A DNA stretch of 64,000 nucleotides from IMG/VR virus record IMGVR_UViG_3300045988_154566, positions 6,167 to 70,166 of that record; one strand, 5' to 3'. Below are positions 5,795 to 37,600 of this stretch, in pieces. A program made the position numbers and the translations under genes. The notes below the pieces were generated by a model. The model saw nothing but the letters and a program-made list of their open reading frames with translations. It ran no database searches and was not told the DNA's origin. How positions within the stretch are numbered: position 1 is the stretch's first letter; every line of letters starts with the position of its first letter. This stretch comes from a virus.

Positions 5795-6271
5795 TCATGC
5801 TATCACCTCCCCTGTTTTCTCATTCACCAAGTCACATCTAAGACCTAGTATCTTGCAGGCTTTAGCAGTATTGTAGAACACTGCCTGTGCCTTGCCATAA
5901 CTCTCAATCTTTGTAAAGATTGGAGTATTGCCATTATAAATTCCATAAGATTCAGCTTCTTTTGTCTGAATCTCATAGTCGCCCACACAATGAGCGACAT
6001 GGTCGAGAATGAAGTTTAACACTTCACCCTCAAACTCCAACTCTGGAGCTGAATTGAGGCAATCAACCTCATATTCCCAAGGGAACCATTCTCCCTCAGT
6101 GAATATTGCCCCTCTTAAAAGGAGTTGACAGAGGTGCGGAGCTGCTGAATACTCCTTGACCTCCTCAAGACGGATAACAGCCTCTCCGTCTGTGCAGAGG
6201 TAAGTTCCTTCCTCTGCTTTACCATAGCCTGCCAGTGGCATGTCCACTGGCATTTTAAAGCCTCTAATCAT
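5795..6271 (-). CDS. hypothetical acidic protein
   Basis: ATG start with GGAGAGGAAGG ribosome-binding site. Confidence 0.5.
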   Translation of the reverse strand: MIRGFKMPVDMPLAGYGKAEEGTYLCTDGEAVIRLEEVKEYSAAPHLCQLLLRGAIFTEGEWFPWEYEVDCLNSAPELEFEGEVLNFILDHVAHCVGDYEIQTKEAESYGIYNGNTPIFTKIESYGKAQAVFYNTAKACKILGLRCDLVNEKTGEVIA

Positions 6272-21220: not shown

Positions 21221-21962
21221 TGAATTATTATTGTTATCAAAGAATGACATTCCCTTTATTGAGGGACGCGCGGTTATTCATAATCCAACAATGAATGAGA
21301 TTGCTCTTATAGGAGAACGAGCTTTTAATATTGGTACACAATTTTTAAATTTTTCTAAAGAACTTTTATCTTCTAAGGACAAAAATGATTTAGAGGATAA
21401 AAGCGATTTTGATATATTTATGTCAGTAATGAATAGTCATGAGCGCTATGAATATAGAACTGATGCAATGTTAGTATTAGCATTGTTATTTCCAAACTGT
21501 CAATTAAAGATAGATAAAGATAAACTTATTTTGAAAGACCAAAATGGAGGAATCTTTATGGAAATAAATAATGATAATTTTACTTCTTTTAGAGATAGAA
21601 TAAGTGATTTATTTTGTCTTAAAAAAGTTACAACCACTGCGGCGGTCTATGACCCTGCGGATAAGCAAGCCCGCAAGATAGCTGAGAAATTGAAAAAGAG
21701 ACATGAGACTCTTGATAAGAAGAAAAATGGAGAAGAAAATGAAAATCAAAAAGTTTCAATTTTTGTTCGCTATGTTTCTATTCTTTCTGTTGGTAATCAT
21801 AAAGATATAAATGAACTTATGAATTATACAGTTTATCAATTATTAGATGAGTTTACTCGTTTTCAAAAGAAACAAAGTTTTGATGCTTATGTTCAAGCTA
21901 AAATTGCAGGAGCTAAAGACTTAGAAGAAGTTGAAAATTGGATGGGAGACATCCATTCATAG
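21174..21962 (+). CDS. hypothetical structural protein
   Basis: ORF track. Confidence 0.4.
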   Translation: MEMMIQFLKKMKIMINELLLLSKNDIPFIEGRAVIHNPTMNEIALIGERAFNIGTQFLNFSKELLSSKDKNDLEDKSDFDIFMSVMNSHERYEYRTDAMLVLALLFPNCQLKIDKDKLILKDQNGGIFMEINNDNFTSFRDRISDLFCLKKVTTTAAVYDPADKQARKIAEKLKKRHETLDKKKNGEENENQKVSIFVRYVSILSVGNHKDINELMNYTVYQLLDEFTRFQKKQSFDAYVQAKIAGAKDLEEVENWMGDIHS

Positions 21963-21992
21963 CAAATTATTTATTTAAGGAGGAAAAATATA

Positions 21993-22958
21993 ATGAAGTT
22001 TGGTGTCCGCGAAATATGCGATGTAACTTTTAAGGCTACATCTAATAACCAAAAAATCGGAAAGAAAACTTTCAAAGCTGGACAGCCAGCATTTTTCATT
22101 GATAGTGCAAAAACATCTACTTTAGAGCAGGCTACAACAACAGTATATGCTCAAGGTGGTAAAGGTAACTCTCGTCTTATCGCTTGGGAAGGTGAAAAGA
22201 CTATGACATTCACAGTTGAAGATGCTTTAATTTCTCCACAGGGTCTTGCTGTACTTTCAGGTGCAGGATTACTTGAAGCTGGTGAAAATGCAATTCAGCA
22301 TGTTCATGTTACTATTGATGCAACAGTTGGTGATGAAGGTAAGGTAGAAATAAGCTTAGCTGAGCTTAATGATGAATTAGGTACAAATGAAGAAGAGCTT
22401 ACTATCTGTGGAGATATTCCAGTATATGCTACAAAGCTTGATGGTTCAGGTGCAGGTATTGATTATTATTCAGATGTTACACTTACAGGTGCAACAGGAA
22501 CAGAGAATGATTATCTTGTAAAAGTTAGTGATAATGCTGAATTTACAATTAAGGATGATGCATCTTTAGCTGTTACTAAGGGTACTGTTGTTAAGTTAGA
22601 CTTCTATGTAGCAATGAAAAAAGGTGTATCTGAAATCACTATTGCTCCAGAAGATTTCGGTGGATATTATTATGTTGAAGCTGATACTTTATTCAGAAGT
22701 GAAGCTACTGGTAAAGATATGGCAGCTACAATTACAATTCCTAAAGCTAAAGTACAGTCAGCAATGACATTTACAATGGCTTCTAGTGGAGACCCAAGTA
22801 CATTCACATTCACAATGGATGCATTCCCTGGATATACTTACTTTGATAGAACAAAGAAAGTTATGTGTACTATCCAGGTTGTAGGTACAGATGGAACAAC
22901 AGAGGATGAAACATATCATAAGGATGTTCCAGCAGATACTCACAAAGCTACACCCTAA
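21993..22958 (+). CDS. major tail protein candidate (frame-0 product)
   Basis: AAGGAGG ribosome-binding site, beta-rich sequence. A programmed-frameshift extension and a strong terminator lie downstream. Placed before the chaperone-like genes and the tape measure. Confidence 0.5.
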   Translation: MKFGVREICDVTFKATSNNQKIGKKTFKAGQPAFFIDSAKTSTLEQATTTVYAQGGKGNSRLIAWEGEKTMTFTVEDALISPQGLAVLSGAGLLEAGENAIQHVHVTIDATVGDEGKVEISLAELNDELGTNEEELTICGDIPVYATKLDGSGAGIDYYSDVTLTGATGTENDYLVKVSDNAEFTIKDDASLAVTKGTVVKLDFYVAMKKGVSEITIAPEDFGGYYYVEADTLFRSEATGKDMAATITIPKAKVQSAMTFTMASSGDPSTFTFTMDAFPGYTYFDRTKKVMCTIQVVGTDGTTEDETYHKDVPADTHKATP

Positions 22959-23256
22959 AGAAGAGCCGGCAGAGCCGGTATACACTATTTCATTAGGAGA
23001 ACCTGATAGTAGTGTTGTAGGAAAAGTATCATGGGATGTTACAGTTCAGAAAGACGGAAAAACAGAAGGAACTTGCGCATTAGTAAGTTCTACTGTAAAC
23101 GCTCTTGATGCAACAGAGAACACAACAGTAGTAGGAAATAAAGTAACAGTTGACTATACAGCAGCAGGAGGAACTACTGATGAAGAAGTTAAGATTGTTG
23201 TTAAATGTGTAGAAGACAATACTAAGACAGCTACTGGAACTTATACAATCGCGTAA
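22953..23256 (+). CDS. +1 frameshift extension of the major tail protein encoding a C-terminal Ig-like (Big_2-type) domain
   Basis: CCC_UAA at 22953-22958. +1 reading gives KEEPAEPVYTISLGEPDSSVVGKVSWDVTV...TATGTYTIA. The +1 frame stays open from 22891 to 23256. Confidence 0.5.
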
Positions 23257-23285
23257 GCGGGGAATCCCGGTCAAGGATTTCTTTA

Positions 23286-23326
23286 GCGGGGTCGGGTTAT
23301 TATACTCGACCCCGCATTTTTTTTTG
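23286..23326 (+). terminator. intrinsic terminator after the major tail gene and its frameshift extension
   Basis: Hairpin GCGGGGTCG-N12-CGACCCCGC followed by T9. Confidence 0.7.
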
Positions 23327-23344
23327 TTTATAGGAGGTGAGACA

Positions 23345-24607
23345 ATGCGTAATTATTCTACCCTTTTTACAGAAGATGAAGTAACATCAATAATCAAAGA
23401 ATTAGATGGTGTTTTTCAAACTGAAGATATTCAACAAATGAGTCAAAAAATTTTAGCAAATTTAAAATCTATGCAAAAGGAACTCAAACACTTATTAAAA
23501 GATTTAGAAACTCTTGATTCTTTGGAGGAGGTTCAAAATAAAAAAGAGCAAATTGAAGCAAAGTGGAAAAACGAGGGACATGAGAATGAAATAACTCCAG
23601 CAAAAATGAAAACAGCATTAAGCTCACTTGCATTGAAAGAATCAGATATGAGTCAATTTAAAAGTATACAACAAGGAATTTCAGCAACATACGGAGCTGT
23701 AAATAAAACAATTTCAACAAAGAGAGCCCAGATATATGGAAAAGCCTATGTTTATGTTATGAAAATAAGAGAAATACTTACTGACCAAAAAGTAGATTAT
23801 CATATCTATGCAAAAACAGATAGCGGTGATACAATTTTAGTAGAGTTAGATGATTATGAAGTTTTATATGCAATGAAAGAAAATGATAATAAAATTGGAG
23901 TGGCTTGTTATACTGCTTTAAATGCAATTAATGAAGCTAAAATGAAGAATAATACACAACTTCATGAAAAACAATCAGGACTGAATGCACAGGCAAAAAA
24001 AGGTTTTGACTTATTTAAACAAGCTATAGATAAAAAAGTCTTAGTAGAGACTAAAGTAACAGATGAAGATGGTAAAGAAAGAATGATGTACCAAGTTGCA
24101 TATAATGGCAATAAAAAATGGTATAAAGATAAAAACTTGTCTAATGAAAAAGCAAAATTTAATAAAGGACATTTTTTTGAAGCTTTTGATATAATCGCTT
24201 CAAAAATGATACAAAATCAAACTTTTGAAAAAATAAAATATAATAATGTTATAAATAATTTGGAACATGATAATGTAGATGCTTGGGCTGGCGGAGATAA
24301 TGCTGAAGATTTTTATTTACAACATTCTGTTAAAGCTATTATAGGACAATCTAGTGCTACTATTAAATCATATAAATCTGTTCAGAATATCCTTAATATT
24401 CTTATAAATTTAATAGATGGTATAACTACAAAAGGCTTTTCAAGAGAAGAAGTTAAAAAACAATTAGAAAAGAACTTCTTTGATAAAAATAAATACGATG
24501 CTTTAGGAAAAACAACAAAAGCAATGAATAAGGATGTAGAAAAAGCAGTAGATAGAATGCTAGAAATATTTAAGTCACAACAAGTTGACAATTCAAAAAA
24601 AATATGA
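23345..24607 (+). CDS. hypothetical K-rich coiled-coil protein (tail assembly chaperone region)
   Basis: ATG at 23345 with GGAGGTG ribosome-binding site. The ORF track lists 23324. Confidence 0.4.
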   Translation: MRNYSTLFTEDEVTSIIKELDGVFQTEDIQQMSQKILANLKSMQKELKHLLKDLETLDSLEEVQNKKEQIEAKWKNEGHENEITPAKMKTALSSLALKESDMSQFKSIQQGISATYGAVNKTISTKRAQIYGKAYVYVMKIREILTDQKVDYHIYAKTDSGDTILVELDDYEVLYAMKENDNKIGVACYTALNAINEAKMKNNTQLHEKQSGLNAQAKKGFDLFKQAIDKKVLVETKVTDEDGKERMMYQVAYNGNKKWYKDKNLSNEKAKFNKGHFFEAFDIIASKMIQNQTFEKIKYNNVINNLEHDNVDAWAGGDNAEDFYLQHSVKAIIGQSSATIKSYKSVQNILNILINLIDGITTKGFSREEVKKQLEKNFFDKNKYDALGKTTKAMNKDVEKAVDRMLEIFKSQQVDNSKKI

Positions 24608-24642
24608 TATACTATAATTAAGAAATAAAAGGAGGGCTAATA

Positions 24643-25170
24643 ATGCCAAGTTTTAAAGAGTTAGATATATCAGTAAACTCTGATTTATATTATGAGGGAG
24701 CAACTATAAATAATCACCCTATAAAAGTGAAGCAATATATTCCTATCGAAGAAAAAATAGAAATTGCAACAAATGTATTAAAAAATTCTTTTGATGAAAA
24801 GAATAGTTTTGCTAATCCTTTTAAAGTGTCTGTGTATTTTGCTTTAGGGGTTATATATCATTATACAGATATTTTCTTTACAGATGAAGAAAAAGAAGAC
24901 CCTACTAATTTATATAACATTCTTGAAAGTAATGATGCTATAAGTGCAGTTATTTCATTAATACCAAGAGATGAATATGATTATTTAAAATCAACTACAG
25001 ATGAGTTAATTAAGAATTTTTATACTTATCGTAATTCTGTTTTAGGTATTTTAGAAGCAGTTAATGAAGATTATGCTACTACACAGGCAGATTTAGATAA
25101 TATCATTAAGGAAGTTGAAGACCCTAATTCATTAGGATTATTAAAAGAAATTATGACAAAATTGGGCTAA
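24643..25170 (+). CDS. hypothetical acidic protein (tail assembly chaperone candidate)
   Basis: AAAGGAGG ribosome-binding site. Position immediately before the tape measure gene. Confidence 0.4.
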   Translation: MPSFKELDISVNSDLYYEGATINNHPIKVKQYIPIEEKIEIATNVLKNSFDEKNSFANPFKVSVYFALGVIYHYTDIFFTDEEKEDPTNLYNILESNDAISAVISLIPRDEYDYLKSTTDELIKNFYTYRNSVLGILEAVNEDYATTQADLDNIIKEVEDPNSLGLLKEIMTKLG

Positions 25171-25226
25171 AATGTTCTATCGGTTCATAAGTTTCTCGAA
25201 ATATTTTAGAAAAAGAAAATTATAAT

Positions 25227-25262
25227 GGGAATGTGATATTCGTATCGCATTCCCATTTTTTA
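25227..25262 (+). terminator. hairpin plus T-tract before the tape measure gene
   Basis: Hairpin GGGAATG-N14-CATTCCC followed by ATTTTTT. Confidence 0.45.
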
Positions 25263-25287
25263 GTATAGAGAAAAAGGAGAAAAATGA

Positions 25288-28200
25288 ATGGCAGGAAGAA
25301 AAAGAATTGATATTGATATAGGTTTCAATACCGATACCTCAAGAGCAAAAGCTCAAATTCAAGATTTACAGAAACAGATAGTTAATTTATCAGTTGCCGC
25401 AAAGCAGAATACAGCAACTAATACTTTATCTTCTGATATTTCCAAAGCTGTAATAGAAGCTAGTAAATTAAATGGTATATTATCACAATCAATGACTTTC
25501 AAGGGAGATAACCTTGACTTATCTAAATTTGTTACAAACTTAAATAAGTCTGGTACTACTATTTCTCAAGTTCGTAAGAATTTAGAATCATTAGGTCCTC
25601 AAGGTCAAAAAGCATTTACATCTTTAGCGCAATCTATTATGTCTGCGGAAGTTCCTTTAAGACAGTCTGAAGGACTTTTAAAGAGTTTTTCTACTACTCT
25701 TACAAATAGTGCGAAATGGACTGTAGCTTCAGGTGCCGTTCATCAAGTACAGACAGAATTTAGTAAAGCTTTTGAGTATAGTAGAAAGCTTGATAAATCA
25801 TTAAATGAAATTAGAATAGTATCTGGAGAAAGTTCAGATAATATGGCTAAATTTGCTAAACAAGCAAATGAATCTGCCAAAGCTTTAAATACAACAACAA
25901 CTGCATATACAAATGCGGCATTAATCTTCTATCAGCAAGGTCTTGATACTGCCGCAGTTAAAGAGCGTACTGATGCAGTTACAAAGATGGCAAGTGTTAC
26001 AGGAGAGACTGCTGCAGATGTATCTTCTTACATGACTGCTATTTGGAATAACTTTAATGATGGTTCAAAAAGCGTAGAATACTTTGCAGATGTTCTTACT
26101 GCATTAGGTGCGGCAACTGCATCTAGTACAGATGAAATTGCGGAAGGTCTTGAAAAGTTTGCTTCTATTGGTAATACCGTAGGTTTATCATATGAATATG
26201 CTACTTCTGCTCTTGCAACTGTTGTTGCAGAAACTCGTCAGTCCGCAGATACTGTAGGTACTGCATTTAAAACATTATTCGCGCGTATCCAGGACTTAGA
26301 GTTAGGCAATACATTAGATGATGGAACAACATTAGGTCAGTATTCTAAGGCTCTTGAAGCTATTGGGGTAAATATCAAAGATTCAAAGGGCGAAATTCGT
26401 GATATGGACGATATCTTAGACGATATGGGTTCTAAATGGAAGACTATCTCTAAGGATACTCAGATTGCGGTTGCACAAGCAGTTGCAGGTACTCGTCAGT
26501 ATAGTCAATTAATTGCCTTAATGGATAAGTGGGATGTTTTCCAAGAGAACTTAAATACAGCTAAAGGTGCGGAAGGTTCTTTACAACAGCAAGCTGATAT
26601 TTATGCAGAATCATGGGATGCCGCATCTAAGAAAATAAAAACTTCATTAGAAGAAATTTATTCAAATCTTATTGATAGTAAAACTATGGTTGATTTAATG
26701 AAATTCCTTAGTAAAGCTATTGAAGGTTTTGGTCATTTTATTGATTCTGTTGGTGGAGTTAGAACTGCTTTTATTTTATTAGCAAATACTATAATTTCTA
26801 ATCAAGGTCCTCAAATAAGCAAATATGTTGATAAAGTTGTTGATAACTTTAAAATCAAATTTGGTATTATGGGCAAAGAGATTGAGGCAACTAGAGAGAA
26901 AGCTCAAAAAGAATATAAAGCTATGATTGCAGGAATGGATATAAAGACTCCAGAAGACCGTGCACAAGTAGCTAATATGAAAGCAAATTATGATATTGAA
27001 AATGCTATTTTTGAGAAGAAAAAAGAATTAGCTAAAATAAATGCAAATTTAACTGAATCTCAAATAGAACAAATAGCCAATGAGAAAGCTCAATTAAAAC
27101 AATTAGAAGAAGAATCTGAAGTCACAGCTAGGATTTATGATACTAAAAAGAAAGCTAGACATGCTGCACATGATGATGTCTTATCTCTTGGTAGTAGATT
27201 TAAAAATACCAATTTATCTTTAGATAAAGTAGAAAATATAAAAATTCGTAATGACATTCTTTCAAAGTTTTTACCTGAAGATACTTTACAAGAAGCTTAT
27301 GCAAAAAAAGTATTGTTAGGTGAAATGGATGAAATGGAGTCTGAAAAATATCTCCAAGAGAATTACTCTAAAAATGAAAGAGTTAGACAGCGTAACCAAA
27401 ATTTTAGAGATATGGTAAAACAAGTTGACCCTAATAAAAAGTTTTCAAAGCAAGAGCGTAGACCTTCACGAACTACTAAAATAGAAGATTATAACTCTTA
27501 TGCTCAAGTATTAGAGGATACAAGAAAAGCATTAGAGTCTCAAGATTATCAAGAACCAATACAAAAAATTCTTCAAAAACAATTTACTAAAGATTATAAT
27601 GCTGCGATACAAGCATATGAGACAAATGAGACTAATATTTCTACTAGTAATAAAGTTTTAAATTTATTTGATATGGAAAAAGTTAAGTCAGGTAAATTTT
27701 CTTTAAAAGGTATGCAAGAAACATTATCCACTCTTTATAATTCTTCAAAAGAAAATAAGCGAATGATTGATGACCTTATGAGATTAGATGAATATAAAGA
27801 AAAGGATGATATTAAAAAACTTATTACTGGTCAAGATGTAGAAGGTATAAATAAATCAGACTATACTCATATGCTACAAACAATTGAAAAGAAAAGAGCA
27901 GGTTATCTTACAAAACGAGATGATATTAGTGGTAATATCAGAGGACTTTTACAAGATTATGGTTTTGGAGCTCCTGATGTTGCAAAAATGTCTGATGCAC
28001 TCGATAAACAGCATAAAATAATAGAAGATACAGATGAATCTTTAACAGCTCATGTAAAAGTATTACTGGATGTTCAAAATCATTCTAATTCAGTAGTTGA
28101 TTCTATTAACAAGATGGGATTTTCTGTAGGAAGCATCGGTGAAAACTTTACTAATGGCGCGAATGCAATGAGTAATTTTGCAATGACTGCTAATAGTGTT

Positions 28201-31200
28201 TATTCTGTTTTTGAATCTATAGAAGAAATGATATCTGGAGATTTAAAAGTAAGTATGGGTTCTCTCATAGGACTTTTTACACAAGCAGGTTTTGCCATTT
28301 CGGGTTTAATACAAACAGGAAAAGCTTTTAGTCAATTTTCAAATATGCTTTCAGGAACTATTGGAAATAGAGTCACTTTAAAAGACCAACAAGCATTAGA
28401 GAATAGAAGATATAATTTAGTAGAAGCAAGAAATAATATTGATACTTCATTTAAAGAATACCTTAGCAAAAAAAGTAGATTAAAAGATGATGAAGATAAA
28501 CAAAAAAGATTATCCAATTTTACAAGTCTATTAAATGAAGATGGAATAGAATTACCAGATAACTTATCTGCGATGAGCAAAGATGAAAGAAGAGCATGGC
28601 TTGGTCAAATAAGCGGACATAGCATCACTAAGAATAACACAACTAGTCAACATTCTTCAATATACGGACTTACTGGTGAGTTAATGTCCGATGAAGGTTG
28701 GGCAAACTTTACTGAAAGTTTAAAACAGAGAAGAGCTGCTGCGCAAGAAGAACAAGATATTATAGCAACAACTCAAGCGGTTGAAGGTCGTGGCGTTCAA
28801 ATCGCAAGTAAAGTTTCAAAAGCTATGGGTGCGATTGGTATCGCGGTTCAGGTCGCAACAGCAGCGTATGCCGCATATAATCTTATTCATAAAGCAGTTG
28901 TAGCTAATTTACAAAAAGAAGCAGAAGAAAGTCTTAGAGTAGCACAAAATACAACAGAAAAGACAAAACAATATAAAGAAGAATCAGATAAAGTTAGTGA
29001 ATTAAAGAAAGCTTATGATGAATTATATAATAAGTATAATGATGGAGAATTATCAGCTTCTGCGTTAAAGAGACAAAGCTATGACCTTTGTATGCAATAT
29101 GGTGAAGAAGAGCTTGCAGTAAAAGCATTAAGTGGAGAGTATAAGAGTCTTGAAGAAGCTATGAAGTCTATTGAGAGTGAAAAAACAGAGAAAACACTTA
29201 ATTCTGCAAAACAAGAACAGAAAAATTATGAAGTAGCTCTTAGAGACCAATTAAGTGCAAGTGCAGAAGAAGATTCAAGTAGAAGAGATTTTGTTAATAG
29301 TATCGAGACTATTGATTTAAAAGGTATGGTTACAAGAAATGCTAAAGAAGATAATTTAGCTAACCAACTTCAAAAATTAGGAGTTGAATTTATCAACAAA
29401 GACCATATTAATCTTCAGAGTTTTGTTGCTGCAATTAAAACAGATACGGATGCTGTTCAGTCTGTATTGAATGAATCTGATACTTCTGCAGCGAGACAGT
29501 TAAGACAGTATTTATCAAGTGCTAAAGACCAGGTTGATGGTTTAACAGAATCTATTGATACTGCGCATGAAGCACAAAAAACTATGATTATAGATGCTCA
29601 AAACTTTGATGCTATTGATTCTATTGAAGATTATACTGCGACATGGAGAAGTATGGTTCATGAAGCATTGAGTAAAGGTGTTTATGATTCTATCGAAGAT
29701 GCTTCAAAATGGGCAAATTCATACATGTCTGCTATTGATAGCGTAAAAGAATACGCTCAAACTGCCACAGTTGCTGATACCTTAGCTGGAAACACATCTG
29801 AAGAAGTACTTAAAGAAGTACTTGAACAAAAAAAGAATATTGACAATTTTACAGCTGAAGATTATGTCAATGAGTTAGGCGATAAAGCTCAATATAAATA
29901 TCGTACAATTGGAGTTCTTCAAGGAGGAGTTGGAGGCGGCACACCAAATGAAGCTGATAGTTATGTAACTGATGCAAATTTAGGAAAAAAAGAAATAGAC
30001 CAGGATGCCGTTGCAGAATGGAGAGAAAATAAAAAGCGTAATTATGGATTAAGTAATAGTTTAGATTATTATACATCTATGACACAAGCATTAGATAAAT
30101 ATAGTGCTTATGAGCAGAGTTTCTTTACTAATTTCTCTCAAAAACTTAGTGAAGCAATAGAAAAAAATGATGGAAATGTTGAAACAGCTTTATCTTCGCT
30201 TGCAGAAAAAATACCTAATGTATTTAAAGAAGCTGCAGAAAAAGGCGAGGCTGATTATGCACAAACTTTAATTGATGGTTTAATTACTGATAAAACAGAA
30301 TTAACAGATAAGCAAAAGAAACAAGTTCTTAATACTCTTGATTTTTCAGGTGTTACATCTGAAGGCGTATCAGTTGATGAAAAAACTTTAAATAATATGG
30401 ATTATTCTTCTCAAGCTACTCTTATGGCAGCCTTTTATGGCGAGAAGTTAAAATTGATTGAAGAGACCGGTGACGCTGCAAGAGAGGAAGCTCAAAAAGA
30501 AGCTGAGACATATAAAGAAACATATAAAGACCAAATAGATGATTATAAAGAAGCTCAAAAAGAGTTAGAATTATTATCAGAAGATTCAGATGCTAATTTT
30601 ACTCAAGAGAGTATTAATAAATTAGCTGATGAATTTAATGGTGACAACTTAAATGACCTTAAGAATAAAGACGCATTTACTGAATTAACAAAGGTTATGC
30701 AAAAACAAGGTTATAAGACTGATGATAATACTATGAAGCAATTCTTTGAAGGTCTTAGTAATAAGAAATATGCAGACCAGTTAGAAAAACTCGATAATTT
30801 AGTTAAAGACCTTACTGTTGATTCAGAAGATTGGAATAAAGTTGTTAAAGCAGGCAAGAAAGCTCAAGAAGCTAATAGCAGTGTTATTGATGATATTCAA
30901 GCTGGATATAAAACTTTAACATCTGCTATGAAGGATTATAATGCTAATGGTTACTTTACTATGGATAATCTTCAAGCTATCCTTGAACTTGAACCTAAAT
31001 ATCTTTCAGCTTTAGAGTGGGATGGAAGTCAATTTAAGTTAAATACTGCTGACTTAAAAGAGATGACTAAGGCTAAACTTGCAGATATGGCAGTAAGCCA
31101 AGCAGAAATTACTGTAGCTAAAGTTAAGTCTATTTTATCAAGTGATAATATAGTTAATGCGGCTATGGAATTAGAAATGACTCAAAAGTTGACCACATCA

Positions 31201-34200
31201 ACAATGAGTTATGCAGAAAGCTTAATTGCAAGTGCTAGAGGTTTAGCTACTAATAATAAAGAGCTTCAGAATAATGCTGCAGCAATGCAACAAGTTATGA
31301 TGTACATTGATGCGCAGGAAAATGCAATTGCCGCGATAGGTAATGTTTATGATAACATAGATGCGCATTTTGATAAGATTATGGGTGGTAGTTCTGCTGC
31401 TTCATCTTCAAAGAAGAAATACTTTGAAGATGAGTTCGATAGATATTGGGAGTTTAAGAAGGCTATTGATGAAGTTGCTCATGCAATGGAACGCCTTGAA
31501 GATGAACAAGATAATTTATATGGACAAGAATTAATTGATAATCTTAATCAAGTAAATGATTTATTAGTAACTCAAAAAGCTAACTATGAAGCTTTATATG
31601 AAGCACAAAAAGTTGAAGCAGAAGAGTTAAGAAGTTCATTAAGCGCATATGGGGCATTATTTGATGAAGAAGGTCGTCTCACAAATTACGCAGATATTAC
31701 GACATCTATGTTTGCTCAGTATGGTAATGTTGATGATTCAGAAACATATGAAGAGTTTAAAAAGTATCTTGAGAGATATGATACTCTTTATTATTCTGAA
31801 ATGGTTGATACTACAGATAAGATTGTAGAAGAATCTAAGAAGATACTTGAAAATAATCTTAAAATTTGGGAAACAGATATCCAGATTAACTTAGATTTAA
31901 AACAAGCTGAAAGAGACTGGAATGATTTCTTAAAAGAGATTAATAGAAACTTTAAATCAACATTTAGTGATGCTGGACAAGAAATTAAATATGCTTTAAA
32001 GAAAGCTCAAACATTTAACCTAGATGATGGAACTCTTGCAAGTGATATTCAGAAAGTTGAAAATATCAATTATGAGATAAATCAATTACAGAATGGCGGA
32101 ACTAGTAATTTATTTAACTCTTTATCAGAAGCGGAAAATGCTTTAAAAGAAGCTAATAAGACACTTCAAGATGATGCTGAAGAATTATTCTCAACATATG
32201 AAGAAGGTTGGAATGCTTATTTAGATTATATTGATGATGTAGGAACACATCTTGATAATATTAATAAGAAATATGAAGAATTAAATGAAGAACTTGAACA
32301 TCAAGCTAATTTAATTAGTCTTTTATATGGAGACCAAGCTTATGATAAACTTGCTAAGTTATATGATACTCAACAGAAGAATAATTTAGCTCAATTAAAA
32401 TCTTTAAGACAGCAAACAGATTTTTATCAAGCACAATATGAAAAAGCTGTTCAATTAGATGGCGAAGATAGCAAGTCCGCAGAGAAGTGGCTTGAAAAGA
32501 AGAGACAGGCTATGCAGGACCTTCGTTCAGAAGAAGAGACTTATATTAAAACTATTCAAAGTAAATACAATAATACTATTGATAGTATTATTCAAAAAGC
32601 TAGAATGGCTACAAATGGCGGAGTTGATACTGATTGGGCTAGAACTATGTATGAGTTAACAAAGACTAAATCAGAAGGTAATTATGACGATGTTGAAAGA
32701 GTATATCAATTAACCTCATTACAGTCTAAATGGAATAAATTAATTGCGGATACTACAGGAACTAAGAATCAAGAGAAGTTAAAGAAGATTATGGATGAGC
32801 AATTAGCTAATCTTGAAAAGAAATCTACTTTAACAGAATATGATATTGGTCTTGCGGAAAAAGCACTCGCAGTAGAGCAAGCTAGAATAGCACTTGAGCA
32901 AGCTCAAAATTCAAAAGATAGTATGAAGCTTACTAGAAATGCAGAGGGTAATTGGTCTTATCAGTATGTAGCAGATGAAGATAATGTTGCGGAAAAGCAA
33001 CAAGATTTATTAGATGCTATTAATGATAAATACGAATATGTAAAATCTGCAAATCAACAAGCCTTAGATGATTTACTTCAATATGAAGAAGACTTCTGGA
33101 CTAAATATGCAGAAATTATGAAAGATGTTTCTTTATCTGACGAAGAAAGACAAAGTAGAATAGCTCAACTCTATGAAATGTATTATGGAGAAGAAGGTAT
33201 TCTTACTCAAGCTTATCAGGATTCTGCACAAACACAGCAAGATTTAAACCTTGTTACAGCAGAACAGTTGTGGGCGATTTATGAATCAGACCAAGAGAAG
33301 TATGCTACTATGACTGCCGCAGAGCAAGAGCTAATAGATGGTTTAAAGAATGGAACTATTAAATCTTATGAAGATATTCAAGAAGCTGGTCAAAGAGTTA
33401 ATGATGAAAGTCTTGACTATTGGAATACAACTGCACAAGCAATGGCAGATGCATGGAATGCAGATGACGGAATGAGCATTAAATCTCAGGTTAATGAAGC
33501 ATTAAAGGATTGCTCAACTGCATTAGGAGATTATAATGCAGATGTAGATGCAGGATGTGCAGCCGCAGGTGAAGATTTTACAGATGTAGGTAATGCAATA
33601 GATGATGTATCTAATGCTATTGATGACTTAGATGGAACAACTGAAGATTATATTGATAATGCAGAAAAATTAATTGATGACTACATAAATAGTTTAAAAG
33701 AATTAGAATCTCAATGGAAAGAAGTTAAGTCTATTGTTGAAAAGAATATTGAAACTATGAAAAAATATGAGTTAGCTGCAAAGAGTGCTTCTACTGCTTA
33801 TAGTCCAGCTGCTGCCACACCATCAAGCGGAGGTAGTGGAGGTGGAGATGCTACTGATATTGCAGATAACAACCCTCCGGAAGAAACAGTTCATTATTAT
33901 GCTGTAGATAGCGCACCAGATGGTGATGGTTTAGTAGTAACAGTATATGAAAGAACGGGGAATAGCGAAAAAGCAATAGGACGAGATGGAGAAGAGCCAA
34001 AAGATTATAGAGACCATAGAATTAGTTCTGTTTGGGAAGCTAGAGATTATATAAATCAAGTTTTATCTGACAATGGATACGATGAAGAATTAGACCCTAA
34101 TGTAAATGTCCAAACAAGCGGTTACAAATATTATTTAGATAATGCAAGAGTAAACACTTATTCCTTTGATACTGGTGGCTACACTGGAGAATGGGATAAT

Positions 34201-34533
34201 TCAGGAAGACTTGCTATCTTACATCAAAAAGAATTAGTTTTAAATAAGGATGATACAGAAAATATTCTTAATGCAGTTGAATTTGTTCGTGGAATTGCAA
34301 ACTCTATAGGAGCTTCATTATTATCTCAACTTGCAGGAATGACAAATGCTACTTCTAGTATTCGTCCTGTTGGAGCTGATTACTTATCTTCTAATGTTAG
34401 TAATGCTTCTAGTAGTAATGTTTATAATGTTACTGCGGAGTTCCCTAATGCGGAAAGTGTTCAAGACATTAGAGAAGCTTTATTAAGTTTACCTAATTTA
34501 GTTAGTCAAAAAGTTAATGAAAAAAATATTTAA
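25288..34533 (+). CDS. tail tape measure protein, 3081 aa, with TP901-family core region near the N-terminus
   Basis: Motif KALNTTTTAYTNAALIFYQQGLD...MASVTGETAADVSSYMTAIWNNF. Extensive coiled coil. GGSGGGDATD linker. C-terminal globular region. Confidence 0.8.
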   Translation: MAGRKRIDIDIGFNTDTSRAKAQIQDLQKQIVNLSVAAKQNTATNTLSSDISKAVIEASKLNGILSQSMTFKGDNLDLSKFVTNLNKSGTTISQVRKNLESLGPQGQKAFTSLAQSIMSAEVPLRQSEGLLKSFSTTLTNSAKWTVASGAVHQVQTEFSKAFEYSRKLDKSLNEIRIVSGESSDNMAKFAKQANESAKALNTTTTAYTNAALIFYQQGLDTAAVKERTDAVTKMASVTGETAADVSSYMTAIWNNFNDGSKSVEYFADVLTALGAATASSTDEIAEGLEKFASIGNTVGLSYEYATSALATVVAETRQSADTVGTAFKTLFARIQDLELGNTLDDGTTLGQYSKALEAIGVNIKDSKGEIRDMDDILDDMGSKWKTISKDTQIAVAQAVAGTRQYSQLIALMDKWDVFQENLNTAKGAEGSLQQQADIYAESWDAASKKIKTSLEEIYSNLIDSKTMVDLMKFLSKAIEGFGHFIDSVGGVRTAFILLANTIISNQGPQISKYVDKVVDNFKIKFGIMGKEIEATREKAQKEYKAMIAGMDIKTPEDRAQVANMKANYDIENAIFEKKKELAKINANLTESQIEQIANEKAQLKQLEEESEVTARIYDTKKKARHAAHDDVLSLGSRFKNTNLSLDKVENIKIRNDILSKFLPEDTLQEAYAKKVLLGEMDEMESEKYLQENYSKNERVRQRNQNFRDMVKQVDPNKKFSKQERRPSRTTKIEDYNSYAQVLEDTRKALESQDYQEPIQKILQKQFTKDYNAAIQAYETNETNISTSNKVLNLFDMEKVKSGKFSLKGMQETLSTLYNSSKENKRMIDDLMRLDEYKEKDDIKKLITGQDVEGINKSDYTHMLQTIEKKRAGYLTKRDDISGNIRGLLQDYGFGAPDVAKMSDALDKQHKIIEDTDESLTAHVKVLLDVQNHSNSVVDSINKMGFSVGSIGENFTNGANAMSNFAMTANSVYSVFESIEEMISGDLKVSMGSLIGLFTQAGFAISGLIQTGKAFSQFSNMLSGTIGNRVTLKDQQALENRRYNLVEARNNIDTSFKEYLSKKSRLKDDEDKQKRLSNFTSLLNEDGIELPDNLSAMSKDERRAWLGQISGHSITKNNTTSQHSSIYGLTGELMSDEGWANFTESLKQRRAAAQEEQDIIATTQAVEGRGVQIASKVSKAMGAIGIAVQVATAAYAAYNLIHKAVVANLQKEAEESLRVAQNTTEKTKQYKEESDKVSELKKAYDELYNKYNDGELSASALKRQSYDLCMQYGEEELAVKALSGEYKSLEEAMKSIESEKTEKTLNSAKQEQKNYEVALRDQLSASAEEDSSRRDFVNSIETIDLKGMVTRNAKEDNLANQLQKLGVEFINKDHINLQSFVAAIKTDTDAVQSVLNESDTSAARQLRQYLSSAKDQVDGLTESIDTAHEAQKTMIIDAQNFDAIDSIEDYTATWRSMVHEALSKGVYDSIEDASKWANSYMSAIDSVKEYAQTATVADTLAGNTSEEVLKEVLEQKKNIDNFTAEDYVNELGDKAQYKYRTIGVLQGGVGGGTPNEADSYVTDANLGKKEIDQDAVAEWRENKKRNYGLSNSLDYYTSMTQALDKYSAYEQSFFTNFSQKLSEAIEKNDGNVETALSSLAEKIPNVFKEAAEKGEADYAQTLIDGLITDKTELTDKQKKQVLNTLDFSGVTSEGVSVDEKTLNNMDYSSQATLMAAFYGEKLKLIEETGDAAREEAQKEAETYKETYKDQIDDYKEAQKELELLSEDSDANFTQESINKLADEFNGDNLNDLKNKDAFTELTKVMQKQGYKTDDNTMKQFFEGLSNKKYADQLEKLDNLVKDLTVDSEDWNKVVKAGKKAQEANSSVIDDIQAGYKTLTSAMKDYNANGYFTMDNLQAILELEPKYLSALEWDGSQFKLNTADLKEMTKAKLADMAVSQAEITVAKVKSILSSDNIVNAAMELEMTQKLTTSTMSYAESLIASARGLATNNKELQNNAAAMQQVMMYIDAQENAIAAIGNVYDNIDAHFDKIMGGSSAASSSKKKYFEDEFDRYWEFKKAIDEVAHAMERLEDEQDNLYGQELIDNLNQVNDLLVTQKANYEALYEAQKVEAEELRSSLSAYGALFDEEGRLTNYADITTSMFAQYGNVDDSETYEEFKKYLERYDTLYYSEMVDTTDKIVEESKKILENNLKIWETDIQINLDLKQAERDWNDFLKEINRNFKSTFSDAGQEIKYALKKAQTFNLDDGTLASDIQKVENINYEINQLQNGGTSNLFNSLSEAENALKEANKTLQDDAEELFSTYEEGWNAYLDYIDDVGTHLDNINKKYEELNEELEHQANLISLLYGDQAYDKLAKLYDTQQKNNLAQLKSLRQQTDFYQAQYEKAVQLDGEDSKSAEKWLEKKRQAMQDLRSEEETYIKTIQSKYNNTIDSIIQKARMATNGGVDTDWARTMYELTKTKSEGNYDDVERVYQLTSLQSKWNKLIADTTGTKNQEKLKKIMDEQLANLEKKSTLTEYDIGLAEKALAVEQARIALEQAQNSKDSMKLTRNAEGNWSYQYVADEDNVAEKQQDLLDAINDKYEYVKSANQQALDDLLQYEEDFWTKYAEIMKDVSLSDEERQSRIAQLYEMYYGEEGILTQAYQDSAQTQQDLNLVTAEQLWAIYESDQEKYATMTAAEQELIDGLKNGTIKSYEDIQEAGQRVNDESLDYWNTTAQAMADAWNADDGMSIKSQVNEALKDCSTALGDYNADVDAGCAAAGEDFTDVGNAIDDVSNAIDDLDGTTEDYIDNAEKLIDDYINSLKELESQWKEVKSIVEKNIETMKKYELAAKSASTAYSPAAATPSSGGSGGGDATDIADNNPPEETVHYYAVDSAPDGDGLVVTVYERTGNSEKAIGRDGEEPKDYRDHRISSVWEARDYINQVLSDNGYDEELDPNVNVQTSGYKYYLDNARVNTYSFDTGGYTGEWDNSGRLAILHQKELVLNKDDTENILNAVEFVRGIANSIGASLLSQLAGMTNATSSIRPVGADYLSSNVSNASSSNVYNVTAEFPNAESVQDIREALLSLPNLVSQKVNEKNI

Positions 34534-34637: not shown

Positions 34638-37600
34638 ATGTCAAATAAGAATAGTCAAGATATTTCTTCAGCTTTATTAGCGGCATTTGAGACTTATAGT
34701 AAAAGTACTGCCGCGTCAGTAAAAGCATCTGTTACTATTGAATGTACAATTACTGGTATCGTAGATAGAGCTGCGGGCATCTATACTGTTAAATATCAAA
34801 ATAATATATTTAATGTATATTCTAATAATGCTGACTACTCTATTAAAGATATTGTCTATGTTTTAGTTCCAGAAAATGATTTCTCAAAAAAGAAAATGAT
34901 TGTAGGGTTAATAAAACATAATACGGATGAATCAGCATCTTCCGCGGAAGAAGATTCTACAGCTAGTCAATATCTTGTAATTGCAGACAATGTTTTAGAT
35001 ATTAACTCAAAAGAAGTTATAAACCTTTGTTCTTTTCATACAGAAACTAAAGATGTTTTTTCAAGTAATGTAGATTCCGCAGACCAAGTTTTAATGCCAA
35101 AATATTTAAAGCATTATAAAACTTATGCTTTATCTATGAAAGTAAAAACTTCATTAATAGATAGTCAAAGAGTTGGCGGAGATTATGGTATTACATTACA
35201 GCTTCCATTCTTCAGATATAGTGAAGATAATGATAAAATGATTAATGATAAAACTTTAACATTTGATATTCATAAGATGTTAGGTAATCCATATAATTAT
35301 CAAGTTTGGACACAGCAAACTTATTATTTTACATTAGAAGAAAATGATGAAGAATTTTATGATAGCCGCAGAAGCCCCATTATTTCTGCTTTTGTAAGAG
35401 ATTTTAATCAAGATGAAAATGTTGATACAAATGATATTTTTATTAAAGATGTTCAATTTTTAGTTGTTCAAGCTTTAACAGAAATAGAAATGCAAGGTAA
35501 TTATTTAAAAATAAAATCTGATACTGGAGAATACTTTTTAAAGAATTACTTTGAAACAAAGAAAATTTTAAAACCAATTTTAAAGATAAAAGGACAAGAA
35601 AAGAATATCAGCGGATATGATTGCTATTGGTTTGTAAAAGATGCTTCAGTTAATGCAACTAACAATCCTGACTATTGTACAAAAGGCGGACTTGGTTGGA
35701 AATGTCTTAATGAGAAAACTAAAGTTAATACAAATGACAATGGAGATACTTCTTATCAATATGTTACAAATATATACAGTTATCAAGTAAAAATAGAAGA
35801 TGTTAAAACATCATTGATTTATAAGTGTGTATTAACAAAAGATACAGAAAGAATTTCTGGTGAATTAGAAATTGTAAATCTTAATTCAGATATTAAGTTT
35901 AGTTTATATTCAACAACAGGAAACAATAATTTTGTAAAAAATATAGGTAAAGTAAGTCTTGCAGCAGACCTTTATTATCCAGGAATTACAGATAATGAAA
36001 ATTCAACAAGTAATTTTAAATATTACTGGGATAGATACGCAAAAGATGGAACTTACTTAGATAGTGATTTCTTAACTTTTAGTGATATAAATACAAAAGA
36101 GAATGGACATTATATTACTAAAGGCGCTTATCCGACTTCTAAAATGCAAGATAGCAATTTAATCACTTGTACAGTATTTGAAGAAAAACAACGCGCGGAT
36201 AGTAGTATAGAGAGCATTAACCTTGGTAGCGCGGATTTAGCTATCGCCGCAGTAGATAGCTATGAATATGTAACTTATTTATATAATGCAACTAGATTAT
36301 ATAATTATGATTCAGATGGAGATTCTCCTTTTACAAGATATTATGATAAAGATACGGTAAACTTAAATGAAATTGAACCAATTACATTTAAAATATATAA
36401 AGCAAATGGAAATGAATTAACAGAAACAGAATATTTAGCTGTTAATATTATTTGGAGAATACCAAAGAAATCTTTGATTAATATTAATCCTGTTTTAATT
36501 AGTGAGGAAGACGATAATTATTATTATGTTCGTGGCGAGAGAAATCTTCCTTATACTATTGACGCTACATACAATCCTTCAAAAAGCAATAATGAGATTA
36601 CTTTATATACCACTTTTGCGGGAGTTGAGATGTTAAATAATACATCATTTACTTTTGTTAAAGATGGCGGAAATGGTACTAATGGTACAAACTATAGTGC
36701 AGAAATTATTATTGATGGATACGCATATGGACAAAAGAATCCTACTACAAATGGAGTATATAAACTTTGCTATGTTTATTTTGCGGATAGCGCAAAATGG
36801 ATGTTATATGATATGCAAAATAATCAATTAATTGATGATACAGCATTAAGAACTCTTGATGTAAGAGTATTTAGTCAAGGTAAAGTTATTACTGATGATA
36901 CCTTATATACAGTAACATGGAGTATGTTTGATGATAAAGCAACTAATCCTTGCTTTACTTTTGATAGTACAAAAAATCAGTTAGTTCCATCAGTAGCATT
37001 TAACCCTTCAGAAGTATATTGCAATATTTTGCAAGCAGAAGTAACTGTTACAGATACAAGCGTTGCTAATAAGAATTGGATAATTTATGCTTACTATCCT
37101 ATTGAAATTACTTATTGTGCAAAAGAATCAGATGTTATTTATACAGATGAAAAAGGTAATAAGAGATGCGCGGTTCCAGTGCTTAATGGCGGATATTCAG
37201 AAGTCTTATTTGCTTCAGATGGTACAAATCCAAAGTGGGACAATAGTTCTAACTTTACCGTTGTAGATAATCTATATAGTATAGATAGCTCAAATGTTTA
37301 TGATTATGAATGGGAGACTTCAGAAAACTTAAACATTTCAGAATATAGAAGTGCAGACTTACCAGAAAATCAGAAAGTAATTGAGCCTACTTCAAAATTT
37401 GATAGTGGTATTAGTAAGAACTATATAAAGACAACACTTACTCTTGATTCAAAGACTAAAGAGGGATTAATTAAAACAAAAGCAGAATATGATAAAGAAG
37501 CAGAAGATTATCAAAATCAAATTACTACTTTAACAACTAATTATTCAACTTTAAAAAATGTTTTAAGCTATTTCCAATATAAACCTTGGTTAAATGTTTT

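Follow-up and report, generated by a model that had tools for sequence, protein, structure and literature searches.

Immunoglobulin (Ig)-like domains move by recombination and land in any frame, and those that arrive out of frame are sometimes rescued by a +1 or −1 shift (PMC5009743). In gene 17.1 of phage SPP1, ribosomes pause at CCC and slip to CCU within CCCUAA, yielding gp17.1*, which carries an 87-amino acid (aa) FN3-like extension and is made at a 3:1 ratio, corresponding to about one subunit in four (PMC6316719). The SPP1 extension is dispensable for infectivity (PMC8718954), and tail decorations have been proposed to mediate adhesion to cell-wall carbohydrates (PMC6316719). Among Listeria phages, the tsh genes of PSA, A118, and A500 undergo a +1 shift at CCC_UGA and the PSA capsid gene cps a +1 shift at ACA_CCC with a pseudoknot; −1 frameshifting has been recorded for Lactobacillus phage A2 (PMC5009743). 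We focus here on a tail tube gene in a 64,000-nucleotide (nt) stretch of viral DNA, positions 6,167 to 70,166 of IMG/VR record IMGVR_UViG_3300045988_154566, referred to throughout as the window. The gene ends in ACA CCC UAA, and the sequence evidence makes it very probable that ribosomes shift +1 at CCC_UAA and thereby append an Ig-like domain to the tube protein. The original prediction, drawn from the window alone, had proposed such a programmed +1 frameshift, a reading that selection on the +1 frame, an invariant site, the lack of start signals, and precedent now support and from which we infer the shift itself.

The CCC_UAA Site and the +1 Frame

The principal features of the locus, with window coordinates, are given below.

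21977..21983, plus strand: Shine-Dalgarno (SD) sequence AAGGAGG of the tail tube gene, read from the sequence; duplex with the anti-SD, −11.1 kcal/mol
21993..22958, plus strand: tail tube (major tail) protein gene, frame 0, 321 aa, probably of YomU_Tube type
22950..22958, plus strand: proposed +1 shift site ACA CCC UAA, containing the sole CCC of the tube gene and invariant in 10 DNA versions
22957..22980, plus strand: linker KEEPAEPV, the first 8 residues of the extension, with lower model confidence and a conserved P-x-E-P motif
22959..22964, plus strand: 6-nt spacer from stop codon to hairpin, variable in sequence and constant in length among relatives
22965..22979, plus strand: GC-rich 6-bp hairpin GCCGGC-AGA-GCCGGU, proposed shift stimulator (minimum free energy fold, z = −2.7)
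22981..23253, plus strand: predicted Ig-like β-sandwich decoration domain, ~91 aa, +1 frame
23254..23256, plus strand: stop codon TAA of the extension frame
23286..23325, plus strand: intrinsic terminator, a 12-bp stem followed by T9, closing the tube transcription unit

The tube open reading frame (ORF) closes with AAA GCT ACA CCC TAA, in which ACA occupies 22950-22952, CCC 22953-22955, and TAA 22956-22958, exactly where the original prediction had placed them. As it had also stated, the +1 frame runs to 23256: it is free of stops from 22885, contains ATG codons at 22891 (the first), 22906, and 22924, and closes at TAA 23254-23256. A slip from CCC to CCU would be followed by 99 codons, giving a predicted product of 420 aa. 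The 99-aa extension after the CCU codon reads KEEPAEPVYTISLGEPDSSVVGKVSWDVTVQKDGKTEGT...GTYTIA (in a longer excerpt, KEEPAEPVYTISLGEPDSSVVGKVSWDVTVQKDGKTEGTCALVSS...TGTYTIA), and the predicted junction, ...HKATP-KEEPAEPVY, is identical to the one anticipated earlier; the junction stretch is given as THKATPKEEPAEPVY and DTHKATPKEEPAEPVY. From residue counts, the 420- and 321-residue products are estimated at ~45 and ~35 kDa, respectively. The tryptic junction peptide ATPK is too short for detection, and EEPAEPVYTISLGEPDSSVVGK is an example of a peptide from the extension.

Several properties set this gene end apart within the window. Proline is least often encoded by CCC (15 of 366 codons, or 4.1%, with CCA at 47%, CCT at 40.7%, and CCG at 7.9%), and eight of the nine prolines of the tube are encoded by CCA or CCT, the single CCC being the last codon. 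Among 36 plus-strand ORFs, the tube gene alone ends in CCC followed by a stop. At no other of these ORF ends does a different frame stay open for 40 codons or more, except where a following gene with a ribosome-binding site of its own accounts for it. The −1 frame meets a stop codon 13 codons past the tube stop, with no X_XXY_YYZ heptamer, and no SD-like stimulator 5′ of the CCC, as in prfB, is conserved among the aligned relatives. The continuation after ORF 34638-40076, the one other candidate for a frameshift, was discarded as an ordinary 59-aa gene with its own SD sequence.

The hairpin that follows the stop also encodes PAEP of the linker, with both prolines specified by the rare codon CCG. 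With CCC in the P site, its stem would begin 10 nt downstream of the P-site codon, the spacing at which a stimulatory structure meets the mRNA entrance of the ribosome. Farther downstream, the terminator stem at 23286-23315 (9 GC pairs of 12) lies 30 nt past the extension stop and, with its T9 tract, is the strongest terminator-like site in 21500-25500; the same scan found nothing comparable after the frame-0 stop. The earlier claim that a strong terminator follows the extension and not the frame-0 stop thus holds, and an equivalent terminator hairpin is kept in relatives.

A second product could in principle arise from transcriptional slippage, in which RNA polymerase adds or skips a base, and extended products of this origin are known in some phage and IS genes (PMC5009743). 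The only homopolymers at this site, however, are C3 and A3, and the conserved stop just 3′ of the CCC is a hallmark of P-site ribosomal slippage. Runs of this length are far shorter than those supporting polymerase slippage, and we regard this route as highly improbable.

Coding Selection and Start Signals

Substitution patterns were compared between the window and relatives (designated L followed by a number), using the ratio of nonsynonymous to synonymous substitution rates (dN/dS). For the extension, comparison with L004 (17 nt differences) gave a dN/dS of 0.20 in the +1 frame, with 1.2 and 1.0 in the other two, and the more diverged L022 (71 differences, dS 0.75) gave 0.24, with 1.7 and 1.2 elsewhere. 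In the L022 comparison, the differences cluster at third positions of the +1 frame. Over the last 23 tube codons, changes are mostly synonymous in frame 0 and nonsynonymous in +1. As constraint follows frame 0 before the stop and +1 after it, selection swaps frame at CCC_TAA, and these comparisons show purifying selection on the downstream ORF in its +1 frame and in neither of the other two. Stop-codon read-through was considered and set aside, given that frame 0 recloses 15 codons past the TAA and that it is the +1 frame that is under selection.

In public gene calls, the extension appears as a separate, unnamed protein of 112-117 aa without a Pfam hit, and a decorated tail subunit is consequently invisible in annotation. 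These calls, with starts at upstream +1-frame ATGs, are matched by an alternative reading in which the +1 ORF is a separate gene of 116-121 aa that begins at ATG 22891, 22906, or 22924, possibly by termination-reinitiation coupling, and encodes a free Ig-like protein. At least one +1-frame ATG does lie in the overlap in every relative examined. No single one of them is common to all relatives, however: L022 lacks the first, L025 the second, and L024 the third. Start signals are also poor, with anti-SD energies of −5.2, −5.2, and −3.1 kcal/mol for the three ATGs versus a median of −10.5 kcal/mol across 36 ORFs, 29 of which are at or below −6. The extension itself contains no ATG, GTG, or TTG codon. 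Furthermore, the overlap evolves under frame-0 constraint, sister lineages have homologous domains fused in frame, and a separate gene would leave the invariant rare last CCC, the fixed 6-nt spacer, and the hairpin unexplained. Separate translation of the extension is, on this evidence, unlikely.

Conservation of the Site, Spacer, and Hairpin

Ten distinct DNA versions of the locus were collected from IMG/VR, ENA, and Logan assemblies: the window, L003/L032, L004, L022/L023, L024, L025/L026, L027/L029, L028, L030/L031, and L033. With tube proteins 69-97% identical, all ten contain ACA CCC TAA or ACA CCC TAG, a spacer of exactly 6 nt that differs in sequence, and a hairpin of the form NCCGGN-AGA-NCCGGN. 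The arrangement is retained even where the downstream domain has diverged widely: L025, which uses TAG, has a tube 69% and an extension ~40% identical to those of the window, and L033 (80% and ~33%, respectively) retains a PVEPEY linker.

Single-base indels are common in metagenome assemblies, and one could imagine that such an error broke a single 420-aa gene. At least 10 distinct sequences, drawn independently from different samples and assemblers (IMG/VR, ENA, Logan), share this frame arrangement with its stop after CCC, which makes the probability of this explanation close to negligible. In one of the ENA contigs, L027 (1588-2553), the tube is called as two pieces of 139 and 114 aa with the extension cassette intact; this split probably reflects either misassembly or a genuine disruption in that contig.

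Across 8 distinct sequences, pairing within the hairpin is 100%, and it falls to 12-46% in slid registers. The inner pair occurs as C-G, U.G, and U-A and the outer pair as G.U, G-C, and U-A. Changes on both sides were found in 2 of the 6 pairs, with an observed covariation score reached by 5 of 500 shuffles. This pattern is suggestive, although not conclusive, of a conserved hairpin acting as a stimulator.

Predicted Fold and Homologues of the Extension

AlphaFold2 (AF2) modeling of the extension gave a mean predicted local distance difference test (pLDDT) score of 69 over residues 1-10 and scores of 91-96 for the remainder. The predicted fold fits the β-sandwich of seven to eight strands and immunoglobulin topology that defines Ig-like and FN3-like decoration domains, which supports, as a high-confidence prediction, the assignment of the extension as an Ig-fold β-sandwich.

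Family membership is a different matter. An hmmscan of the 99-aa extension against Pfam-A at E ≤ 1 returned no family, Big_2, I-set, and FN3 included, and scans against PHROGs and NCBIfam gave no match. The search against Big_2 and other Ig models that had been suggested to check the original prediction thus came back empty at this threshold. Its description of the extension as Ig-like stands for the predicted fold; with no Pfam match, the term refers to that fold and not to membership of a family. A tblastn search against 50,697 phage records produced a chance-level match only (E = 2). Exhaustive phmmer searching of 1.84 billion proteins and a word search of 5.8 billion retrieved only ORFs called as separate small genes; phmmer added one weak match (E 4.6e-6, a sum over 12 repeats) to P0006, which is built of Big_1 repeats and is the sole sequence link to any Ig family. 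One further locus, near-identical, was found by a metagenome scan with an alignment of the extension.

Proposed Mechanism

We propose that the majority of ribosomes stop at UAA 22956-22958 and release the 321-aa tube subunit. Termination at this UAA would be slow with peptidyl-tRNA-Pro on the rare CCC, so that a fraction of ribosomes would slip one base forward, the P-site tRNA-Pro sliding from CCC (22953-22955) to the overlapping common codon CCU (22954-22956). Decoding would resume at AAA (22957-22959) and continue as AAA GAA GAG... in the +1 frame, producing a 420-aa subunit with a flexible Pro/Glu linker and a C-terminal Ig-like β-sandwich. The hairpin, positioned at the mRNA entrance when CCC is in the P site, probably lengthens the pause and raises the shift frequency. 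We infer an efficiency, and with it a product ratio, that would leave the short form in excess. Short and extended subunits would then co-assemble into the tube, and sub-stoichiometric Ig-like domains would decorate the tail exterior. The most likely role of these domains would be to confer weak adhesion to carbohydrates of the cell surface or of mucus.

Several observations weigh against the frameshift reading or parts of it. No in-frame fused homologue of this extension was found among the 5.8 billion proteins of the homologue collection or the 1.84 billion searched with phmmer, and physical fusion is therefore supported by analogy with a second domain type (see below). The +1-frame ATGs are a further point, as every relative examined retains at least one within the tube gene, which leaves a small probability to weak independent initiation. 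The hairpin overlaps the conserved P-x-E-P codons, its double changes come from two diverged lineages only, and the shuffle statistic (5/500) is modest. In the SPP1 record, where the GCT CCC TAA context is present, no equivalent hairpin (NCCGGN) was seen downstream of the site; because SPP1 shifts without a comparable hairpin, the mechanism does not require one. Finally, a genome scan for a prophage or host returned no relative, and a tRNA scan of the window revealed no tRNA gene.

Decorations, Frames, and Losses in the Tube Family

Tubes 53-62% identical to that of the window carry a second, unrelated decoration domain with the motif W-[IV]-G..I.TG..DIT.V..G.ALT..DV, whose members match one another in pairwise blastp at E 1e-5 to 1e-42. 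This domain is fused in frame in L008 (462 aa), L010 (474 aa), and 11 of 13 long database homologues. Elsewhere it occupies out-of-frame ORFs of 136-160 codons directly after the tube genes, in the −1 frame in L011/L012, L013, L014/L015, and L017 and in the +1 frame in L021. The tube stops that precede these ORFs, with candidate shift motifs, are as follows.

L011/L012, 3976: tube stop before a −1 ORF; ACT TTT CCG in L011
L013, 3955: tube stop before a −1 ORF; TCT TTT TAA (U_UUU_UAA)
L014/L015, 3928: tube stop before a −1 ORF; same motif as L013
L017, 3964: tube stop before a −1 ORF of 156 codons; canonical heptamer C_CCA_AAA two codons before the stop
L021, 3982: tube stop before a +1 ORF; TTT CCC GGT

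The heptamer of phage A2 is likewise C_CCA_AAA. In L013-L015, the frame overlap spans only 19-31 nt. Since the same second domain occurs in frame, in −1, and in +1, downstream ORFs at this position belong to the tube protein.

An extension is absent altogether from further relatives, in which a terminator comes directly after the tube stop (L034 at 1365-1440, L005-7, L009, L018/19); this indicates that the decoration is dispensable and has been repeatedly gained or lost. One relative of this kind has a 73% identical tube. The closest GenBank relative, L002 (MT835936.1, 3065-3110; tube 51% identical), ends in GTA CCC TAG, with 14 open codons in the +1 frame (PSTNSPGTEEEGKN) and 39 codons in the −1 frame, to the terminator. 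This end may be a remnant of a lost extension or may reflect a different decoding event.

Such losses, together with the dispensability of the SPP1 extension (PMC8718954) and the L002 end with its short +1 frame after CCC TAG, would fit a scenario of decay, in which a 1-nt indel disrupted an ancestral tube-Ig fusion that had been in frame and left the window extension as an unexpressed relic. A relic is very unlikely, however, to show a dN/dS of 0.20-0.24 at dS up to 0.75, to keep its frame intact at ~33-40% extension identity, to yield a confident AF2 model, and to have the terminator placed after it.

The Tail Tube Gene and Its Surroundings

The frame-0 gene product is a tail tube (major tail) protein, as originally assigned: it matches phrog_2729 ("virion structural protein") at E 5e-52, and its tblastn matches in large siphophages (the Lactococcus 949 group, Bacillus phages Thrax1 and PJN02, Enterococcus phage EF1, Brevibacillus phage Sundance, and gut phage Phass-1) are annotated as major tail, tail tube, or structural protein. 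In a homologue collection of 5.8 billion proteins, at least 8000 protein clusters match the tube at E ≤ 1e-10, and PF27173 (YomU_Tube) is precomputed on all 120 of the best homologues (58-97% identical; the best 120 of at least 8000 clusters). An hmmscan of the window tube against a local Pfam copy gave no YomU_Tube match, the presence of PF27173 in that copy not being established. The AlphaFold model of the tube, built with 44 homologues, has a mean pLDDT of 70.5, with a loop at residues 48-68 and the C-terminal tail at 303-321 disordered.

In relatives, the called gene order is YomW, YomV, YomU_Tube, the extension, a gene without a Pfam hit, a weakly YomO-like gene, and the tape measure, with PF27256 (YomW) and PF27211 (YomV_2nd) identified upstream of the tube. 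The window tape measure is ORF 25288-34533 (3081 aa; TIGR01760 at E 9e-39 over residues 159-493). At ~1.5 Å of tail length per tape-measure residue, 3081 aa correspond to several hundred nanometers. Related contigs measure 140-156 kb, some of them from gut metagenomes, and the source of the tube gene is an uncultured, ~145-kb siphophage of the gut, probably SPbeta-like.

The tube gene and the tape measure are separated by two genes, which stand in the place usually taken by tail assembly chaperones. The gene at 23324-24607 begins at ATG 23345 behind AGGAGG and encodes 420 aa without a match in family scans; that at 24643-25170 encodes 175 aa, and its counterpart in relatives is weakly YomO-like. 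A terminator-like hairpin at 25224-25257 lies immediately 5′ of the tape measure gene.

The Phass-1 homologue (L001, OQ749652.1, 4001-5617) is annotated as a 538-aa protein and matches the window tube by tblastn in two pieces covering 64% of the query. This gut phage is classed in the "Caudoviricetes code 15 clade", in which TAG is recoded. An alternative genetic code was rejected for the window, where the 3081- and 1812-aa ORFs are intact under code 11 and the extension is in another frame.

A Possible Cassette in an Unrelated Tail Family

IMG/VR was scanned for the exact pattern ACACCCTAR-N7-CCGG-N-AGA-N-CCGG. Two contigs already collected were returned, along with three whose motif lies at the end of a gene for a major tail protein of 188-190 aa; the family of this protein (phrog_88, E 5e-50; PF04630, Phage_TTP_1) is unrelated to that of the window tube.

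L035, 1185-1213, reverse strand: cassette in a phrog_88/PF04630 gene
L036, 2683-2711: cassette in a phrog_88/PF04630 gene
L039, 4213-4241: cassette in a phrog_88/PF04630 gene

Each has ACA CCC TAA or ACA CCC TAG, 6 nt, and TCCGGT-AGA-xCCGGA, and the three differ mutually in stop codon, spacer, and one stem base. Their +1 frames encode an 18-residue acidic tail only (PSETPVDPEDDTDDEPNG, or PNSSPVEPDDEDDDEPNG in L039). By rough estimate, a motif of 19 specified bases has ~1 chance occurrence in such a collection; landing in frame at the ends of tail tube genes is not expected by chance. These matches hint at a cassette common to unrelated tube families, whether shared or transferred.

A tentative extension of this idea is that the shift signal is a portable recoding cassette, kept while the downstream domain diverges beyond easy recognition, as in L033. 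Its possible components would be ACA CCC UAA/UAG, the fixed 6-nt spacer, the NCCGGN-AGA-NCCGGN hairpin, and, encoded by this hairpin, a P-x-x-x-P-V-E/D-P linker. If so, a frameshift signal would move by recombination between different tail tube genes, and a small hairpin would enhance stop-assisted +1 shifting across Firmicutes phages in general.

Implications

A +1 shift at this site would mean that the very long tail of a widespread gut phage group is decorated on its surface with Ig-like domains. The tube family, with its +1 CCC_UAA/UAG site and hairpin, three −1 motifs, in-frame fusions, and losses, constitutes a natural comparative series, with which the origin of recoding sites after domain shuffling and the boost that a hairpin may give to stop-assisted +1 slippage could be tested. 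Of modest added interest are the conservation of the hairpin, the variety of decoding arrangements found in a single tube family, and a cassette that may be portable.

Comparison with Known Systems

CCC followed by a stop was correctly cited in the original prediction as a known +1 context in Gram-positive phages, exemplified by CCCUAA in SPP1 (PMC6316719) and CCC_UGA in Listeria tsh (PMC5009743). SPP1 gene 17.1 has the same CCC_UAA motif as the window, also in a tail tube gene. The tube families differ, gp17.1 being a protein of 177 aa and the window tube a 321-aa protein, probably of YomU type, with an inserted β domain. The SPP1 extension is FN3, whereas that of the window has no detectable sequence relation to FN3; GCU precedes CCC in SPP1 and ACA in the window; and the shift has been proven experimentally in SPP1 and is predicted only in the window.

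The Listeria tsh and cps genes resemble the window case as proposed: in low-GC hosts, the P-site tRNA slips +1 on a rare CCC, aided by a stop (tsh) or by a 3′ RNA structure (cps), and the ACA_CCC context of PSA cps is that of the window. Listeria tsh, in contrast, uses a UGA stop and belongs to an unrelated tube family, whereas the window and its relatives have UAA or UAG and would combine a stop with a small hairpin. The −1 shift of Lactobacillus phage A2, with its Ig-like extension, finds its likeness in the relative L017 rather than in the +1 window.

The window domain matches none of the Pfam Ig families named in the recoding review (Big_2, I-set, and FN3), and the review's general picture is reproduced within a single tube family, in which the second domain occurs in frame, in −1, and in +1 (PMC5009743). 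The window case is a predicted, unannotated addition to the well-known class of stop-assisted CCC +1 shifts, and it leaves the established concept unchanged.

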